Shown piece by piece: positions 21,900 through 63,765 of a DNA stretch of 64,000 bases. The first letter of the stretch is position 1, and each line of letters starts with the position of its first letter. The notes below the pieces were generated by a model. That model saw only the letters and a program-made list of their open reading frames with translations, ran no database searches and was not told where the DNA came from. Made by a program: the position numbers and the translations under genes. The DNA is from Candidatus Omnitrophota bacterium. Lineage in GTDB: Bacteria > Omnitrophota > Gorgyraeia > Gygaellales > JAQTUX01. The DNA lies in NCBI GenBank assembly GCA_028707125.1, contig JAQTUX010000001.1, forward strand, positions 822,528 through 886,527, written 5' to 3'.

Positions 21900-21907
21900 A
21901 AACTTGT

Positions 21908-22065
21908 CTTCGGGGTAGGGTGAGATTCCCGACTGGTGGTTGCGCAGAAAGCGCACACCGGCGCTTCCTTTAGCGCCGGGTGTTATAGCCCACGAGTTCG
22001 CTGATAGGCGAGCAGAACCGGTGAAATGCCGGTGCCAATGGTAAAGTCCAGATGGAAGAAGGCAG
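21908..22065 (+). promoter_or_regulatory. FMN riboswitch (RFN element) aptamer
   Basis: 5' CTTCGGGGTAGGGTGAGATTCCCGACTGGTGGT and 3' CCAATGGTAAAGTCCAGATGGAAGAAGG match conserved RFN segments; located upstream of ribBA. Confidence 0.75.
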
Positions 22066-22092
22066 GCGGCATCAGGTTTGATGTCGGGAAGC

Positions 22093-25071: not shown

Positions 25072-26148
25072 ATGCGCATGGCCCTGGAATGCGCTTTAAA
25101 GGCAAAGGGGCATACCAGCCCCAATCCTCTTGTAGGCGCTGTTTTAGTCAAGGGCAACAGGGTCATCTCAACCGGTTTTCACAGAAGGGCGGGCCTTGAC
25201 CACGCGGAGATAGACGCGATAAACAATGCCATAGGCAGCATCAGGGGTTCTACGCTTTACGTTACGCTTGAGCCCTGTTCCCATTTTGGCAGGACGCCGC
25301 CTTGCGCGGATGCCATAATCAAAAGCGGCATAAAGAAGGTGGTCGTAGGCATGAAGGACCCCAATCCCTTGAATAACGGCAGGGGCTTAAGCGCCTTGAA
25401 AAAGGCGGGCATAGAATTAAAGGCAGGGGTCCTTGAGCCGGAGTTGAGGGAAATAAACCGTCCGTTCATAAAATTCATTACCAGGAAAATGCCCTATGTG
25501 GTGGTCAAGGCGGGTATGAGTTTGGACGGCAGGATCGCCACCAGCACAGGTGAGTCCAAATGGATCACCTCGGATAAGGCGCGCAGATCCGCCCGGCGCC
25601 TGCGAAGCGAGTTTGACGCGATCATGGCAGGCAGTAATACGGTATTGCGCGATGACCCCTCTTTGGAGCCGGAACCGGCAAGGCCGGGTTATAAAAAGAT
25701 AATAATAGACAGGAAGTTGAGGATATCCCCGCGGGCCAGACTATTCAGGGGCGGTTCGGGGGTCATAATAGCGGCCTCCGATAAGAATCCCCTATCCAGA
25801 ATAAACAGATTTAAAGATAAGGCGGTTATACTGCCTGTGAGAGAACAGCGCGGCCGCCTGGATTTGAAGGACTTAATGAGGAAGTTGGCAGGGCTTGAGA
25901 TCACCAGCGTATTTGTTGAGGGCGGCGGAGAGCTTATCGGTTCACTATTTGATGCGCGCCTTGTGGACAGGGTAATGTTTTTTATCGCGCCTAAGATAAT
26001 CGGAGGCAGGGATGCTGTCAGTGTAGTGATGGGGAGGGGGGTGCCTAGCATAGCCAATTCCCATAAGATAACTAATCTCTCAGTAAGGAAAATCGGTAGA
26101 GATTTGTTGGTAGAAGGGGATGTGGATTCTACACACGTAAGTGTGTAG
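25072..26148 (+). CDS. ribD: Bifunctional riboflavin biosynthesis deaminase/reductase RibD
   Basis: CDA zinc motif HAEIDAI...PCxHxGRTPPC and C-terminal RibD_C reductase; last 7 codons lie inside a REP hairpin. Confidence 0.9.
   Translation: MRMALECALKAKGHTSPNPLVGAVLVKGNRVISTGFHRRAGLDHAEIDAINNAIGSIRGSTLYVTLEPCSHFGRTPPCADAIIKSGIKKVVVGMKDPNPLNNGRGLSALKKAGIELKAGVLEPELREINRPFIKFITRKMPYVVVKAGMSLDGRIATSTGESKWITSDKARRSARRLRSEFDAIMAGSNTVLRDDPSLEPEPARPGYKKIIIDRKLRISPRARLFRGGSGVIIAASDKNPLSRINRFKDKAVILPVREQRGRLDLKDLMRKLAGLEITSVFVEGGGELIGSLFDARLVDRVMFFIAPKIIGGRDAVSVVMGRGVPSIANSHKITNLSVRKIGRDLLVEGDVDSTHVSV
26129..26148. repeat. REP-type hairpin copy (CTACACAC-GTAA-GTGTGTAG)
   Basis: Perfect 8-bp stem/4-nt loop, same family as hairpins flanking the IS200-like tnpA. 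Confidence 0.55.
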
Positions 26149-26157
26149 TGAGAAATT

Positions 26158-26850: not shown

Positions 26851-26928
26851 CGGGGAGTAGCTCAGTTTGGCTAGAGCGTTTGGTTCGGGACCAAAAGGCC
26901 GTGGGTTCAAGTCCCACCTCCCCGACCA
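26851..26928 (+). tRNA. tRNA-Pro (anticodon CGG)
   Basis: Cloverleaf folded by hand: 7-bp acceptor CGGGGAG/CTCCCCG, U8A9, D-stem GCTC/GAGC, anticodon loop TTCGGGA, T-loop TTCAAGT, encoded CCA. Confidence 0.85.
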
Positions 26929-52319: not shown

Positions 52320-52347
52320 TCTTTACCATCTTCCAAGGCGTTTCCCT

Positions 52348-52367
52348 CTACACACTTACGTGTGTAG
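52348..52367. repeat. REP-type hairpin (CTACACAC-TTAC-GTGTGTAG) overlapping tnpA stop codon
   Basis: Perfect 8-bp stem; the TAA stop of tnpA lies in the loop. Confidence 0.6.
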
Positions 52368-52727
52368 AATCCTTTGGCTGCGGATGTATTCTTGCACGCT
52401 TTCTAATTCTACTATATCCACTTCTCTAAAACCATATCGCCTTGCCCAGAAATGCTTAGGATTGTAATTCCCCACACGTAAGTGTGGGGTGTTCTCCAAT
52501 AGTTTCTTACCAGAAACAGATTTTAGTGTTCTTACCATATCAGCCAATTCTTTCCTGTCTTTTGCTTCCAGCAACATATGCACGTGGTTCTTATTGGATT
52601 CCATTTCCAAAATATTATAGTTCTTTCGTTGTGCTACCTCTAGAAAAGAGTTCTTTGCTATCTCTTCAGCTTTCGCTTCCAGTGTTTCTCTTCTGCGCTT
52701 TGTCACGAACCAGATATGGTAATACAT
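52356..52727 (-). CDS. tnpA: IS200/IS605-family Y1 (HUH) transposase TnpA / REP-associated tyrosine transposase-like
   Basis: HUH motif HVHMLL, C-terminal catalytic Tyr in SVQEYIRSQ, ~123 aa; REP hairpins at gene end and inside it. Confidence 0.8.
   Translation of the reverse strand: MYYHIWFVTKRRRETLEAKAEEIAKNSFLEVAQRKNYNILEMESNKNHVHMLLEAKDRKELADMVRTLKSVSGKKLLENTPHLRVGNYNPKHFWARRYGFREVDIVELESVQEYIRSQRILHT
52470..52489. repeat. REP-type hairpin in inverted orientation (CCCCACAC-GTAA-GTGTGGGG), inside tnpA coding sequence
   Basis: Perfect 8-bp stem; encodes TPHLRVG of TnpA. Confidence 0.55.
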
Positions 52728-52806
52728 GGTTTTTGCGGAAATTACCCCCCTCTACTATATATGACGCAAAAATCAGCGTTTTACTTGCAAGAAAGTTTAA
52801 ATATTC

Positions 52807-53042
52807 TATGAACCCGCTGGCTTCCTCGCTCATATCGGTTTTGCCCCGAATGGTATTCAAAGAGGGCCGGCAAAGGTCTCTCGCAGCTCGGTGCTTGCGG
52901 AACTCGCCCTTTTTGCTCCAGCAAAAAGGGCTCAGACAGTCCTCGCACTTTGGGCCTTATAGGCCACAAAGTTCCCTCGCTGCTCGAGCTGCTTTGCCTA
53001 AAACCTCAAATTCGCTCGTAAGCCAGCGGGTTCATTTACGAG
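52807..53042. repeat. MITE-like element with ~24-bp terminal inverted repeats (ATGAACCCGCTGGCTTcCtCGCTC) and internal 11-bp perfect hairpin
   Basis: TIRs read directly at ~52808-52833 and ~53016-53040; internal GCCCTTTTTGC-TCCA-GCAAAAAGGGC. Confidence 0.45.
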
Positions 53043-53177
53043 ATGCTCGCTCGTAGGAATATCAAAAATAACTAAGCAATCAGAACTTATTACGGTATAA
53101 TAGATAGCAGCAAGGAGAACCGTCCCCGATCCAATATTTATATTACAAGAAAGCATAATGTCGACTAATTATTTTCT

Positions 53178-53205
53178 TGACATATAATATTAAATGTGTT
53201 AATCT
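53178..53205 (+). promoter_or_regulatory. Sigma70-like promoter of island operon (TTGACA-16-TAATCT) with AAAGGAGG RBS downstream
   Basis: Read directly in AT-rich spacer upstream of 53232. Confidence 0.45.
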
Positions 53206-53231
53206 GTTAACATCTATGAAAGGAGGCAAGC

Positions 53232-53432
53232 ATGCAAAAACAAAAAAATGACACTGAAAGAGATATGGTAAAACATCTGAAGAAATTAGTTATGCTTAGC
53301 GAAAATTCCTTGATTATAAGTCTATCTCAACAAGATGTCCCTCATCAGACGATACGAAAAGTTGCCGGAGTTGATATGTCTCGTGTCACCTCGTTGCTTC
53401 GCGGGGTAAAGTCTGCAAAAAAGACTGATTAG
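53232..53432 (+). CDS. Small putative HTH protein, paralog 1 of 4 (66 aa)
   Basis: Hydrophobic helix then helix-turn-helix-like HQTIRKVAGVDMSRVTSLLRG; aligns with the other three small ORFs. Confidence 0.5.
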   Translation: MQKQKNDTERDMVKHLKKLVMLSENSLIISLSQQDVPHQTIRKVAGVDMSRVTSLLRGVKSAKKTD

Positions 53433-53448
53433 CGAAAGGAGTACTACT

Positions 53449-53613
53449 ATGCAAAACACTGACAAAATCATTGAGGAATTAGTGGCTATAAAGAAGCTGC
53501 TTATGCTTCAATTAATGCGCGATGACGTGGACGCCTCCGTAATTGGGAAGGTACTAGAACTAACCCCTACGCGAATACGACAAATAATACCAGTAAAAGA
53601 CGTACGCAAATAA
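53449..53613 (+). CDS. Small putative HTH protein, paralog 2 of 4 (54 aa; below ORF-track cutoff)
   Basis: MQNTDKIIEELVAIKKLLMLQLMRDDVDASVIGKVLELTPTRIRQIIPVKDVRK; AGGAG RBS 8 nt upstream; same architecture as neighbours. Confidence 0.5.
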   Translation: MQNTDKIIEELVAIKKLLMLQLMRDDVDASVIGKVLELTPTRIRQIIPVKDVRK

Positions 53614-53628
53614 TAAGGAGCCTTCATA

Positions 53629-53856
53629 ATGAAACGAACTAGGAAAATTGGCGCAGAAGACGAAGTTTCAGTAAAATTGGGCATCTTAATCCGGTTGTTT
53701 ATTGAATTTCTGATAACATCGGAAAATAAGAACTTTAATACTGGCAACGTTGCAAGAATCTTAAAATCACTCGATATTACACCAACCGAAATTGCAAGAA
53801 TGTTAGGTAAGAAATCTGTAACTGATGTTGCACCATTTCTTTATCGTAAGAAGTAA
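53629..53856 (+). CDS. Small putative HTH protein, paralog 3 of 4 (75 aa)
   Basis: LGILIRLFIEFLI helix then NVARILKSLDITPTEIARMLG HTH-like segment. Confidence 0.5.
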   Translation: MKRTRKIGAEDEVSVKLGILIRLFIEFLITSENKNFNTGNVARILKSLDITPTEIARMLGKKSVTDVAPFLYRKK

Positions 53857-53869
53857 GGGGTAGATACCA

Positions 53870-54769
53870 ATGTCTACTTATATTCAGCAAGTAACAGACG
53901 TTAGATCAAATTCAAGTGACCAAATACACTTCGCAGCAAAATTGATTAGGCGTTCCAGACAAAAAAAGGCCGTGTTTAAGGCAATCTACCGTGGTAAAAA
54001 ACAGATTAAATCCATTTCTGAAATAGAGAAAGTCACCGATTTAAATAATATCCAAATATTAAAAGCTGGTGGGACCTTAGCTGGGAATGGTATTGTCAAA
54101 AAAGTAAAAAAGGGATACCAAAAAGATACATTTTATGCACAACATTATCGCAAAATATTGTCTCTCGCCTCAAATAGTAAAAAGTTGAAACAATTCCCAA
54201 CAAAAACACAACCCTATCTCAATTCTAATATAGGCACAACTAGTAGAATATCGCTTAAAAAACCTGCGCAAAAAGTAAGATTTATTACAATTGATGATAT
54301 CTATTCATTTAGAAAAATTAAAGATAATAAATCAAAAAATAATATAGATGGAACATTTCTTTCCAAACTTCCTGAGAATGAAATCAAAAGTGGAATCGCA
54401 AAGATCATTAGGGAAAGCGGAATATTTAAAGACTGGGCAGGAGAAAAAAATGATCTATTTACAACAAAAGTAAGCATTGGATCAAAAAGGGTGGCTGCTG
54501 TTTTTGCGTTTAAAGGAAAAGGCACAAAAGGCATTTTAACATTAGATAAAATGGGAAAAAGAGCAGACCAAATTCAGCGACTATTTGACAGCCAATCTTC
54601 TCAACTATTTATAGTGGTTTATAAAGGACAAATAGGCCAAGTTATTCTTGAGCAGATGTATGCTTACGCTATTGCGAAGGCTCTTTACGGTAAAGAGATC
54701 TATTACGGTATTATTGATGGAGATGACTTGATGCGGCTAATTTCATCTTATAAGAACTGTTTTGAATAG
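53870..54769 (+). CDS. Hypothetical K-rich 299-aa protein, no recognisable domain
   Basis: AT-rich codon usage; N-terminal possible winged-helix-like segment, low-complexity K/N/S linker, C-terminal alpha/beta region (possible nuclease-like fold, unproven). Confidence 0.5.
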   Translation: MSTYIQQVTDVRSNSSDQIHFAAKLIRRSRQKKAVFKAIYRGKKQIKSISEIEKVTDLNNIQILKAGGTLAGNGIVKKVKKGYQKDTFYAQHYRKILSLASNSKKLKQFPTKTQPYLNSNIGTTSRISLKKPAQKVRFITIDDIYSFRKIKDNKSKNNIDGTFLSKLPENEIKSGIAKIIRESGIFKDWAGEKNDLFTTKVSIGSKRVAAVFAFKGKGTKGILTLDKMGKRADQIQRLFDSQSSQLFIVVYKGQIGQVILEQMYAYAIAKALYGKEIYYGIIDGDDLMRLISSYKNCFE

Positions 54770-54780
54770 GAGGCGACATA

Positions 54781-54990
54781 ATGAAGAAAAAGCGCAGTAT
54801 AACTAAAAAAAGTCTGTCTGATTCCGATCGTTTAGATATAATCATATCTTTACTAAGTCACTTACTAACTGTTCAGTTATATAAATCAGGCGCGACAATG
54901 GATGATATATGTAGGCATTTACATATTGCAAAAACATCCGTGGTCGATATGTTAAAAGGTTTCAAGCGAAAGCTCGGTAATAATTCGTAA
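54781..54990 (+). CDS. Small putative HTH protein, paralog 4 of 4 (69 aa)
   Basis: IIISLLSHLLTVQL helix then TMDDICRHLHIAKTSVVDMLKGF. Confidence 0.5.
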   Translation: MKKKRSITKKSLSDSDRLDIIISLLSHLLTVQLYKSGATMDDICRHLHIAKTSVVDMLKGFKRKLGNNS

Positions 54991-55080
54991 ACAAGACGGT
55001 TACAATTAATCTTGGACCAATAACATAATGGGGACGGTTCTCATTAGTTTTAGTTGCTGAATCATAACAGACCTAGTAGC

Positions 55081-55180
55081 CGCTTTTCGTAATTAGCTAA
55101 TTTCCCGTAACTTACAGAACAAATATTTACCCCACACTTACGTGTGGGGAATGGCAATCCCTGATTGTCTCAGCGGGTGG
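55081..55180 (+). repeat. Repeat unit U1: CGCTTTTCGTAATTAGCTAATT head (12-bp perfect palindrome AATTAGCTAATT) + REP hairpin (55130-55149) + CTGATTGTCTCAGCGGGTG tail
   Basis: Read directly; second copy U2 ~175 bp downstream. Confidence 0.55.
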
Positions 55181-55255
55181 CTTTGGACGGGGCGCCCCGC
55201 CCCGCGCGGAGTTCTCCCGTCCGTTATGGTAATGAATTCTATGAAGAATGGCAGA

Positions 55256-55400
55256 CGCTTTTCGTAATTAGCTAATTCCCCCATAACTCTATATAAGGAT
55301 ATCACAAGATGTGATATCCTTTATTGTTTCTAATGCTATTGGAGGGTACCCCACACTTACGTGTGGGGAATGACAATTCTGCACTGATTGTCTCAGCGGG
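55256..55400 (+). repeat. Repeat unit U2: same head, extra perfect hairpin AAGGATATCAC-AAGAT-GTGATATCCTT (55295-55321), REP hairpin (55349-55368), tail merging into 230-bp repeat copy 1
   Basis: Read directly. Confidence 0.55.
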
Positions 55401-55613
55401 TGACTGCCGAGCGGGCACAGAATTTCGGGAGGGGTGACGTCGTTTTGAGGGCTCCCGCCGCGCGGACCCGCCAAGACATCTGGCGGGGAGCACGGCGGGA
55501 AACAAAACGACGGCAGGACCCCTCCCTCAGAGTTACAATCTAGATACTTCGGCGGTGATTTATTGACAAGGCCGCCTCAGTATCAACACCAGGACGCATA
55601 CGAAGGTGTTGAC
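55384..55613 (+). repeat. ~230-bp GC-rich structured direct repeat, copy 1 (upstream of MNT/HEPN pair)
   Basis: Near-identical to 56405-56634; nested inverted repeats GGGAGGGGTGACGTCGTTTTG / CAAAACGACGGCAGGACCCCTCCC and inner CCCGCCA-AGACATC-TGGCGGG. Confidence 0.7.
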
Positions 55614-55638
55614 ATTTATATAAGTTATATTGTATAAT
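55609..55638 (+). promoter_or_regulatory. Consensus sigma70-like promoter (TTGACA-18-TATAAT) for MNT/HEPN operon
   Basis: Perfect hexamers read directly at the end of repeat copy 1. Confidence 0.55.
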
Positions 55639-55679
55639 TAAGTTGCGAATACTTAGCGGGATAAAAAAATTAGGCAAAT

Positions 55680-55967
55680 ATGACGACAAAGATTAGTAGA
55701 ATAAAACAAATAATACTGCCGATCTTGCAACAATACGGCGCTAAAAAAGCAGCGCTATTTGGCTCATATGTCAGAGACCAGATGAAAAAGGATAGTGATA
55801 TTGATATATTGGTAGAAATTGAAAAGGATATCAGCCTGCTTGATTTTATAGGTCTTAAACAAGAGATTGAAGAGGCGTTAGGAAGGAAGATAGATTTGGT
55901 GGAATATGACAGCATTAAACCTCTTCTCAGAAAGCGTATTTTAAAAGAGCAAGTGGTAATTCTATGA
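55680..55967 (+). CDS. Minimal nucleotidyltransferase (MntA-like antitoxin)
   Basis: GSxxRG...DSDIDILV pol-beta NTase motif, 95 aa. Confidence 0.8.
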   Translation: MTTKISRIKQIILPILQQYGAKKAALFGSYVRDQMKKDSDIDILVEIEKDISLLDFIGLKQEIEEALGRKIDLVEYDSIKPLLRKRILKEQVVIL

Positions 55968-56308
55968 AAAGAGACGCTAGAGTATATATCGAAGATATCA
56001 TAGAGAGCATTACAAAGATAGAAGAGTATACGAAGGATCTTAAGTCCGAAGACGATTTCTATAAGGATACTCAGATTCAAGATGCTGTCTTAAGGCGGCT
56101 GGAAATCATCGGTGAGGCAGTTAAGAATATCCCCGAAGAGATCAAGAGGAAATATCCGCAGATACCATGGAAGAAGATTGCCGGCATGAGAGATATTCTT
56201 ACTCATCAATATTTTGTAGTAAACCTGAAACAAACATTTAAGGCAGTCAAAGAAGACATCCTCGATCTAAAAAAGAACATTGCGCAGATAAACAAAGAAT
56301 TGCCATAG
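55964..56308 (+). CDS. HEPN-domain toxin (DUF86/HepT-like)
   Basis: Rx4HxY motif (RDILTHQY), 114 aa, 4-nt overlap with upstream NTase gene. Confidence 0.8.
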   Translation: MKRDARVYIEDIIESITKIEEYTKDLKSEDDFYKDTQIQDAVLRRLEIIGEAVKNIPEEIKRKYPQIPWKKIAGMRDILTHQYFVVNLKQTFKAVKEDILDLKKNIAQINKELP

Positions 56309-56352
56309 TTGTTTTGAGGTCGCAAAGTGCGACCTCAAAGATTGTTTCGTTT

Positions 56353-56384
56353 ACGCCTCCAAATTAACTTGGAGGCGTTTTTAT
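56353..56384 (+). terminator. Intrinsic terminator after HEPN gene (GCCTCC-AAATTAAC-TTGGAGGC + T-run), preceded by a second hairpin at 56314-56338
   Basis: Read directly. Confidence 0.65.
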
Positions 56385-56404
56385 TGGACGCGGATGGATT
56401 GGTT

Positions 56405-56634
56405 CTGATTGTCTCAGCGGGTGACGCCGAGCGGGCACAGAATTTCGGGAGGGGTGACGTCGTTTTGAGGGCTCCCGCCGCGCGGACCCGCCAAGACATC
56501 TGGCGGGGAGCACGGCGGGAAACAAAACGACGGCAGGACCCCTCCCCTCAGAGTTACAATCTAGATACTTCGGCGGTGATTTATTGACAAGGCCGCCTCA
56601 GTATCAACACCGAGCAGCATACGAAGGTGTTGAC
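56405..56634 (+). repeat. ~230-bp GC-rich structured direct repeat, copy 2 (upstream of yggS)
   Basis: Near-identical to 55384-55613 (few substitutions/indels). Confidence 0.7.
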
Positions 56635-56664
56635 TTCCTCGATAGATTATGATAATTTAAGGCG

Positions 56665-63378: not shown

Positions 63379-63570
63379 TCCGTCATTGCGAGCCCCGCAT
63401 TTGTCTGGGCGAAGCGACCGAAGGGAGTCCCGAGCGAAGTCGAGGGGCAATCTCTTTTTGCGGCTGGATTGTCTGTGTTTCGCGGCAGCGGGGCCTGCCG
63501 CCGAGCCACCCTATCCGTGCTCATTTTCCATAACAGACGGGAGGACTGCGCGCGGATAGGGGACCTGTCT

Positions 63571-63595
63571 CGGCGTCACCCGCTGAGACAATCAG
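63571..63595 (-). repeat. Inverted copy of the 25-nt head (CTGATTGTCTCAGCGGGTGACGCCG) of the 230-bp repeats
   Basis: Exact reverse complement of 56405-56429; sits in a GC-rich hairpin-rich spacer after lgt. Confidence 0.55.
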
Positions 63596-63765
63596 AACTA
63601 CTTAACCCCTCGCCCGCAATGTAACTACCCACTTTCCTATTCAGATAGGAAACAGTTTCTTATCCGTTCCGTAGAATACATCTCCTGTTATCCTTGTTTT
63701 GCCTGCTTCTAAGTAGTATAATATGGTTCAACGTAAAATGTTAGGAGTTCAAAATAGGAGTGATA

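Follow-up and report, generated by a model that had tools for sequence, protein, structure and literature searches.

A candidate REPtron-like unit built on an IS200-type Y1/HUH transposase gene that carries two mutually inverted hairpins

We analysed a 64,000-nucleotide (nt) stretch of a Candidatus Omnitrophota bacterium genome (assembly GCA_028707125.1, contig JAQTUX010000001.1, positions 822,528 to 886,527 of the forward strand), here called the window. It contains tnpA, a gene for a 123-residue Y1/HUH transposase, and two mutually inverted hairpins are written into this gene: hp1 lies within the open reading frame (ORF) and hp2 spans the stop codon. The hairpins are a conserved trait of the whole tnpA clade and are selected at the nucleic-acid level. 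We consider it probable that the gene and its hairpins constitute a REPtron-like unit, in which an IS200-type (class 1) transposase carries its cognate hairpins within its own coding sequence. Systems of repetitive extragenic palindromes (REPs) and REP-associated tyrosine transposases (RAYTs) are the principal case in which a transposase has become resident in a genome, where it manages short repeats. The present clade, found in the little-studied phyla Omnitrophota and Planctomycetota, is a concrete candidate for an intermediate between IS200-type elements and REP/RAYT systems. A literature search by hairpin sequence, and on RAYTs and REPINs (REP doublets forming hairpins) in Omnitrophota or in the Planctomycetes-Verrucomicrobia-Chlamydiae (PVC) group, found no description of the clade or of its sequences. 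New in this clade are a class 1-like, core-only enzyme, hairpins fixed within the ORF, and base-pair covariation that is seen as amino-acid covariation.

Five hairpins in the window, two of them in tnpA

The hairpin family was defined in the window by an exact 8-bp stem and a 4-nt loop, expressed as a degenerate 20-nt pattern. This pattern matches the window five times (starts at 26129, 52348, 52470, 55130 and 55349), compared with 0.00 matches expected from 100 dinucleotide-preserving shuffles. The matches are the five hairpins listed in a first-pass annotation of the window, made from the sequence alone. A looser core pattern allowing one mismatch, applied to the whole window, returned the same five hairpins and no additional copies. 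The gene and the hairpins are as follows.

52356..52727, minus strand: tnpA, ORF for a 123-residue Y1/HUH transposase of IS200 type (Pfam Y1_Tnp)
52470..52489, minus strand: hp1, in tnpA; sense strand CCCCACAC-TTAC-GTGTGGGG, then AAT; codons 80-86, (T)PHLRVG
52348..52367, minus strand: hp2, at the 3' end of tnpA; sense strand GGATT-CTACACAC-GTAA-GTGTGTAG-AGG; encodes ...LHT
26124..26155, plus strand: solo hp2-type copy (hairpin 26129-26148), flanks GGATT / GAAA in common with tnpA; sense orientation
55128..55160, plus strand: solo hp1-type copy (hairpin 55130-55149), 3' flank AATGGCAATCC in common; non-coding
55336..55380, plus strand: solo hp1-type copy (hairpin 55349-55368), homologous to an internal tnpA segment

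As the annotation had it, one hairpin overlaps the tnpA stop and an inverted relative inside the ORF encodes TPHLRVG; both can be read directly from the sequence. hp2 repeats hp1 in inverted orientation, with a variant stem, and the TAA stop codon (52356-52358) falls within its loop. The distance from hp1 start to hp2 start on the sense strand is 122 nt, leaving a spacer of 102 nt. The predicted fold of the region as single-stranded DNA (ssDNA) includes both hairpins (z = -3.2).

The three extragenic copies are single hairpins, each in sense orientation to the local genes; for the hairpin at 55130 these are the adjacent ORFs on the plus strand. In two cases the homology to tnpA exceeds the stem. 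The copy at 26124-26155 has 32 nt (94%) in common with the 3' end of tnpA. The one at 55336-55380 has 45 nt (89%) in common with the internal segment of the gene, and this stretch extends beyond the hairpin by 13 nt on the 5' side and 12 nt on the 3' side. The hairpin at 26129 had been proposed to form the last codons of ribD, and it does supply the final six codons and the TAG stop, with the start of ribE 10 nt downstream. RibD and RibE were both identified. Since the RibD models stop about 9-12 residues short of the protein C-terminus, the hairpin amounts to a short tail added to RibD.

Other accounts of these palindromes were considered. Chance palindromes are ruled out by the shuffles and by the covariation described below. 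Intrinsic terminators are unlikely because the hairpins have no T run, and double-stranded operator palindromes are unlikely because it is the pairing, not the sequence, that is conserved. An Rfam search of the whole window, of the low-GC island that holds tnpA and of six doublet-bearing loci from related genomes returned no family for hairpins or doublets. The stems begin CCCC, CCAC or CTAC and the REP-type 5' GT[AG]G foot is absent; GTAG is found only at the very end of the 3' arm of the window hp2, as its last tetranucleotide. Conserved flanking sequences are AAT, GGATA and AGG.

The in-gene hairpins are conserved and selected as nucleic-acid structures

To follow the hairpins across homologues, we used 30 metagenomic loci chosen by N-terminal and HUH peptide patterns alone, so that the sample was blind to the hairpins. 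The hairpin counts rest on the 23 loci that are readable to the stop codon or to the contig end. At about nt 235-238 of the gene, hp1 is perfect in 15 homologues, has one mismatch in four and is degenerate or absent in four. The stop-codon hairpin, which reads ...I-P-H-T-stop, is conserved to a similar degree. Six homologue loci carry an extra hp1 36-49 nt upstream of the start codon.

The pairing itself is maintained. In positional homologues, 89.9% of the cells are paired for hp1 and 97.3% for hp2; each hairpin has four pairs that changed on both sides, and 0 of 500 shuffles reached the observed score for either. Because hp1 is coding, the covariation of its stem is visible as covariation of amino acids. 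Thus, TPHLRVG (CAC...GTG) is replaced by TPYFRMG (TAC...ATG) in one case. In another it becomes TPRFRVG, where the change of CAC to CGC is offset by a silent change of CGT to CGC, and in a third TPHLRAG, where a silent CCA to CCG is offset by GTG to GCG (V to A). For synonymous variation, we took the sequence pairs that have an amino acid in common and scored the fraction of them in which the codons differ. This fraction is 0.18 at codons 80-87 (p = 2e-5), the lowest 8-codon window of tnpA, and 0.28 at codons 119-123 (p = 2e-3), compared with 0.51 in the rest of the gene.

The loops also change together. Across lineages, an hp1 loop of TTAC is found with an hp2 loop of GTAA or GTGA, and TTCC or TCCC with GGAA or GGGA. 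Extragenic copies share the loop class of the in-gene hairpins in the same locus without exception (12 loci of one class, five of the other). Co-variation as reverse complements is expected of one DNA hairpin read on opposite strands, and it argues for a recognition element at the DNA level that co-evolves with the protein lineage. We saw no clear signal of strand-restricted U-G wobble in the stems, in which U-G-compatible and A-C mismatches are about equally frequent.

Two variants of the arrangement were observed. About half of the 14 closest homologues have an extra in-frame insert (EGYHRRKPVE or similar) at the hp1 loop, and in loci with DNA (for example, L091 and L139) this insert is a translated hp2-like hairpin. 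In a subclade represented by L143 and L077, the hairpin types are exchanged between the two gene positions.

TnpA is of IS200 type

The first-pass annotation had described a Y1 transposase with an HUH motif and a catalytic tyrosine in QEYIRSQ, and the protein-level comparisons bear this out. TnpA matches Pfam Y1_Tnp (1e-27) over profile positions 5-121 of 121. The HUH motif is H48-V49-H50 (codons 48-50, 52578-52586) and the catalytic residue is Tyr114 (52386-52388); both align with the corresponding motifs of the ISDra2 and IS608 TnpA proteins. With the NCBIfam IS200 equivalog NF033573, TnpA scores 90 bits (cutoff 55). Its tyrosine motif, YIRSQ, has the form Y-x3-Q, not Y-x3-NP, and Y-x3-Q is the class 1 signature (Quentin et al. 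2018, PMC6006769). The nearest solved structures are ISDra2 TnpA (E = 5e-9) and IS608 TnpA, with no RAYT chain among the Protein Data Bank (PDB) chains at E <= 1. By sequence, TnpA is IS200-type and not a canonical RAYT.

In an AlphaFold model of TnpA, with a predicted local distance difference test score (pLDDT) of 79, the elements follow the order b1-aA-b2-b3-aC-loop-b4-aD, as expected for a Y1/HUH core. The residues encoded by hp1 begin directly after the long helix 58-79, in a low-pLDDT surface loop before strand b4. The segment TPHLRVGN aligns without gaps with YPQLKEKL / FPHLKQPH of ISDra2-type TnpA and is collinear with P-Q/H-L-K of ISDra2 TnpA. Because of this gap-free alignment to a core segment and the clade-wide conservation, we read hp1 not as an inserted REP but as a recoding of a conserved core loop of TnpA. 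The annotation had called a REP embedded in frame in the transposase gene unusual. The in-frame hairpin is real, yet it is not an inserted REP, and there is a precedent in subclass 2.4 of tnpAREP, where REPs are variably inserted in frame within the gene (Quentin et al. 2018, PMC6006769).

Close relatives of the protein are few. Only seven of 1.84 billion protein representatives clustered at 50% identity are at least 50% identical to TnpA. Not all of the closest representatives have the hairpin-encoded motif TP[HRY][LFY]R..N; those that do are mostly at or above this identity. One representative, the predicted protein P0124 (771 residues), consists of 13 tandem repeats that weakly match TnpA residues 52-87, and it probably reflects an ORF call that spans a tandem DNA repeat.

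Hairpin doublets are dispersed in related genomes

A scan for the hairpin in one genome per species (596 Gb) returned at least 120 loci. We estimate that about 35-70 matches to the degenerate 20-nt pattern would be expected by chance in 596 Gb, and isolated hits in unrelated phyla (for example, Nocardioides and Pyrinomonadaceae) were therefore disregarded. Several metagenome-assembled genomes (MAGs) have at least five separate hairpin loci each. They include MAGs from Phycisphaerae, Sedimentisphaerales, Pirellulales and other Planctomycetia, as well as from Saganbacteria/Margulisiibacteriota and one from Nanoarchaeota.

The hairpins of PVC and Omnitrophota genomes typically come as a doublet, RAAA-hp1-AATG-(0-15 nt)-GGATA-hp2-AGG. 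Among the matches listed, to which the doublet counts below also refer, there are 27 hp1-hp2 doublets in related genomes. Inverted pairs resembling bacterial interspersed mosaic elements (BIMEs), a possibility raised by the first-pass annotation, are thus present in the relatives, though not in the window. Ten of the 27 doublets share the identical 8-nt junction AATGGATA, which amounts to about seven distinct sites when orthologous loci are counted once. The longer spacers look similar to the tnpA codons that immediately follow hp1 and immediately precede hp2; one example is aatgTCAGAAAAAGGATA, which is similar to ...N-Q-K-K-I-P. Given the recurrent junction and the resemblance of the spacers to tnpA codons, the doublet looks as if the interior of the tnpA 3' region had been removed and the remainder then amplified as a unit. 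We found no dispersed copies of the long form, hp1-96 nt-hp2, among the loci compared.

The same resemblance could be explained if the inverted hairpins bracket a self-excisable or rearrangeable cassette. The segment of about 100 nt between them encodes strand b4 and the catalytic-tyrosine helix, and its loss would switch off the gene and leave an hp1-hp2 doublet. The dispersed doublet does correspond to the tnpA 3' region minus the interval between AAT(G) and GGATA, and both gene positions carry a hairpin, with the types swapped in the L143 and L077 subclade. However, none of 150 loci (120 of them the hairpin matches listed) has an allele in which tnpA codons 1-79 lead directly into the doublet, and in the decayed alleles it is other parts of the gene that have been deleted. 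We regard a cassette of this kind as highly improbable.

The placement of the doublets relative to genes is strongly biased. Among 23 doublets outside tnpA, 19 have a co-directional ORF within the next 60 nt and 18 come after the end of a co-directional ORF, while a single one faces the end of an ORF on the opposite strand; several of these loci are orthologous and hence not all independent, and genes in the related loci were called simply as ORFs. The 3' arm of hp2 and the AGG that follows it together give GGAGG, just before start codons.

This bias would also be expected if the hairpins were cis-acting RNA elements of the host, acting as intercistronic mRNA stabilisers or translation modulators, and if their link to tnpA were one of origin and not of function. 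The overlap of GGAGG with the Shine-Dalgarno position, the GNRA-type loops in hp2, the conservation of doublets at orthologous sites in different species and the sense orientation of the 26129 copy, 10 nt before the ribE start, are all in keeping with such a role. Several features are harder to reconcile with it. The reverse-complement co-variation of the loops fits one DNA hairpin on two strands and not two independent RNA loops; the about equal frequency of U-G-compatible and A-C mismatches leaves no strand-specific signature; and no Rfam family matches. An RNA role also leaves the close association with a family of hairpin-processing enzymes unexplained, and strand-specific insertion into ssDNA likewise predicts a sense bias. 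We therefore think a mainly host-serving RNA element quite unlikely.

Hairpins with the same core were seen in three further settings. Saganbacteria / Margulisiibacteriota / WOR-1 MAGs have many copies, mostly intergenic, of a perfect 26-nt palindrome, ATTCCCCACACTTAAGTGTGGGGAAT, which has the stem and flanks of hp1 but a symmetric TTAA loop (loci L002, L003, L006, L010, L014, L017, L025, L032, L054, L058, L067, L070, L071, L080 and others). No TnpA homologue was seen in the 8-kb pieces around these loci. In the Nanoarchaeota MAG MM_PC_MetaG.mb.229, CTCCACACTTAAGTGTGG[AG]G is central in a longer conserved palindrome (gtcaagatgcttgcgaaaa ... ttagcatcttgagc; L021, L027, L041, L050, L060, L084, L097), a repeat sharing the hairpin core and resembling a miniature inverted-repeat transposable element (MITE). 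An Owenweeksia MAG (L033, L056, L101, L114) and other Bacteroidota loci contain the identical 20-nt hairpin, CCCCACACTTACGTGTGGGG, flanked by other short hairpins of the gtgccttcggcac type, suggesting that this core has been reused in a separate family of composite repeats.

tnpA resides at fixed sites in relatives

In at least nine loci, tnpA lies between the genes for the V-type ATPase subunits E and C (AC39), and in others between oppD and oppF. TnpA identity among syntenic loci is 75-95%, compared with 61-90% for the flanking genes. This similar divergence indicates that tnpA has been co-inherited at a fixed site across species of the relatives, where it is apparently a resident, syntenic, single-copy gene and not a hopping insertion sequence (IS). 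Some of these alleles have decayed at the syntenic V-ATPase site with both hairpins intact: L146 (435-795) has a frameshift, and L147 (2938-3170) and L148 have an internal deletion of about codons 11-68. There is no second tnpA copy in the 64-kb window, and no dispersed tnpA fragments were found among the 120 hairpin-selected matches listed.

We compared these properties with those of an ordinary autonomous IS of the IS200 family, for which the hairpins would be the left-end (LE) and right-end (RE) transposition signals and the other copies would be scars or solo ends. TnpA passes the NCBIfam IS200 equivalog cutoff and has a Y-x3-Q motif; in several homologues, one hairpin lies 36-49 nt upstream of the start codon and another at the 3' end, an LE/RE-like layout; the window tnpA is within a low-GC island; and decayed copies exist (the L146 frameshift and the L147/L148 internal deletion). 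In IS200/IS605 elements, the end hairpins have the same orientation on one strand. Here, by contrast, hp2 is inverted relative to hp1, the two loops change in step as reverse complements, and one of the hairpins is inside the ORF. The gene stays at fixed syntenic positions, diverging across species at approximately the rate of its neighbours, and neither a second copy in the window nor dispersed fragments among the 120 matches listed accompany it. The recurrence of the same 8-nt junction at about seven sites argues for amplification of the doublet and not independent decay of full elements. An autonomous IS is in our view unlikely. On the question of IS200 or RAYT affiliation that the first-pass annotation had left to phylogenetic placement, the profile models assign TnpA to the IS200 type, while the same-orientation LE/RE hairpin layout of such elements is not found in the window.

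Observations that weigh against a REPtron-like unit

Some results count against our preferred reading of tnpA and its hairpins as a REPtron-like unit. The NCBIfam RAYT model (REP_Tyr_transpos) gives TnpA 33.6 bits and its cutoff of 80 is not reached. The REP/RAYT pattern put forward by the first-pass annotation is therefore only partly upheld: the two mutually inverted REP-like hairpins and the dispersed copies are present, but the protein is IS200-type (90 vs 33.6 bits, Y-x3-Q). The loci selected by hairpin are a biased sample. The doublets are conserved at orthologous sites across species, mostly between co-directional ORFs, and both features also fit host-level selection on an RNA function. 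At the ntpK-ntpE spacer, filled and empty sites were compared (L147 vs L098, L103, L130 and L131), but divergence of the spacers was too great for a clean insertion boundary or a target site to be defined; only the right-hand junction, close to AGGGA|ACGAGAT, is suggestive.

The window itself adds further points. It has just three extragenic copies across 64 kb, and none is a tight hp1-hp2 doublet; the sole pair in the window is the in-gene one with its 102-nt spacer. The window tnpA lies in a 4.3-kb island (52320-56650) of foreign appearance, with 40% GC compared with 50-52% for the genome, and has neither an upstream hairpin nor a good Shine-Dalgarno sequence near its start. For these reasons, it may be a recent arrival or poorly expressed.

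Relation to known systems

A close parallel is with the REPtrons of E. coli and Pseudomonas, in which a class 2 TnpAY1 (RAYT) is found (Quentin et al. 2018). Both comprise a Y1/HUH enzyme with cognate, short, inverted palindromic hairpins that are also dispersed, frequently in inverted pairs and chiefly between genes of the same direction, and that at times supply stop codons. In both, the gene is resident and syntenic in relatives, and hairpins and enzyme co-evolve. As in a REPtron, at least two cognate inverted hairpins accompany the transposase gene, although hp1 and hp2 are placed in the ORF (core loop) and at its end (stop codon) and do not flank it. Inverted pairs with a short spacer that are amplified as a unit, the hallmark of REPINs and BIMEs, are found in the related genomes and not in the window. 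The hairpins differ from those of REPtrons in having no 5' GT[AG]G foot, and the protein differs from RAYTs in being core-only (about 120 residues), with Y-x3-Q in place of Y-x3-NP and a score below the RAYT model cutoff.

The placement of hp1 has its nearest counterpart in subclass 2.4, where a REP likewise lies in frame in the transposase ORF between the HuH and Tyr motifs; the extra hp2-like insert seen at the same loop in about half of the present clade strengthens the likeness. Unlike those variable insertions, which belong to the RAYT class, hp1 adds no residues, is fixed clade-wide and is paired with a stop-codon hairpin, and the protein that carries it is class 1-like.

In sequence, size and the Y-x3-Q motif, TnpA is closest to the IS200/IS605 transposases (IS200, IS608, ISDra2), a family whose substrates are short ssDNA hairpins. 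The window gene differs from these elements in that no same-orientation LE/RE hairpins flank it, there is no tnpB, a single copy is present within 64 kb, and the gene occupies a fixed syntenic site in relatives. A third group, the class 3 TnpAY1 proteins of Planctomycetes and Acidobacteria, is described as intermediate between IS and REPtron, with atypical hairpins that can be abundant; these proteins have about 178 residues, a Y-x4-Q motif and a distinct core profile, and their hairpins, with a CnGA foot, flank the gene (PMC6006769). The present clade shares with class 3 its occurrence in PVC-type phyla, and differs from it in its length of about 120 residues, its Y-x3-Q motif and its in-gene hairpins.

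A model for the proposed REPtron-like unit

We propose that hp1 and hp2 form in ssDNA of opposite strands and that they would be bound by TnpA. The enzyme would nick and rejoin DNA beside them, in the manner of IS608 and ISDra2 TnpA and of E. coli TnpA-REP, whose activities are the basis for these putative catalytic steps (PMC6006769). Nicking and rejoining could copy short hp1-hp2 doublets and single hairpins to new sites, where they would persist mainly in intercistronic spacers, and such dispersal may be ongoing. Recognition hairpins inside the ORF would link enzyme and substrate physically, so that the two would be inherited jointly and co-evolve. This may be the reason for the in-gene placement.

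A more far-reaching version is that the recognition code has become fused with the genetic code. The recognised hairpin would consist of the enzyme's own codons, so that covariation of base pairs would dictate amino-acid changes in pairs; the catalytic-Tyr module would be bracketed by inverted copies; and the clade would be an extant intermediate form between ISs and domesticated REP systems. If this were true, the tnpA gene would itself be a substrate, and self-regulation or self-excision would be possible. We hold this version to be speculative and, on present evidence, improbable.

Aside from its mechanism, the clade is a clean natural case of overlapping constraints from protein and nucleic-acid structure. 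The system is small (123 residues, 20-nt hairpins) and amenable to direct in vitro testing. It also carries a lesson for annotation, as the label 'IS200/IS605 family transposase' can mask biology that is not that of an IS.

Other features of the window

The low-GC island (52320-56650) lies between ftsA and yggS/proC. It contains tnpA, four small ORFs resembling helix-turn-helix proteins (53232-54990), a 299-residue ORF without a clear family and an MNT/HepT pair. ftsZ does not follow ftsA, and the tubulin signature GGGTG[ST]G is encoded nowhere in the window. Upstream of tnpA, 80 nt from its start, is a 228-nt element (52808-53035) with perfect 16-bp terminal inverted repeats (ATGAACCCGCTGGCTT / AAGCCAGCGGGTTCAT) and about 55% GC in an AT-rich context. 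It is present as a single copy in the window, looks MITE-like and may have taken the place of the hairpin that homologues carry upstream.

A GC-rich direct repeat of about 230 nt starting CTGATTGTCTCAGCGGGTG occurs at 55384-55613 and 56405-56634, where the two long copies flank the MNT/HepT toxin-antitoxin pair (55680-56308). Shorter versions are found at 55161-55250 and 63460-63598 (minus strand). Searches of Rfam and of viral contigs gave no match to this repeat, which folds very stably (-127 kcal/mol, z = -6.4) and whose fold includes a hairpin about 100 nt long. hp1 hairpins immediately precede two of its copies. An FMN riboswitch (21902-22067) upstream of the rib operon and a tRNA gene (26851-26925) downstream of ribE are both ordinary.

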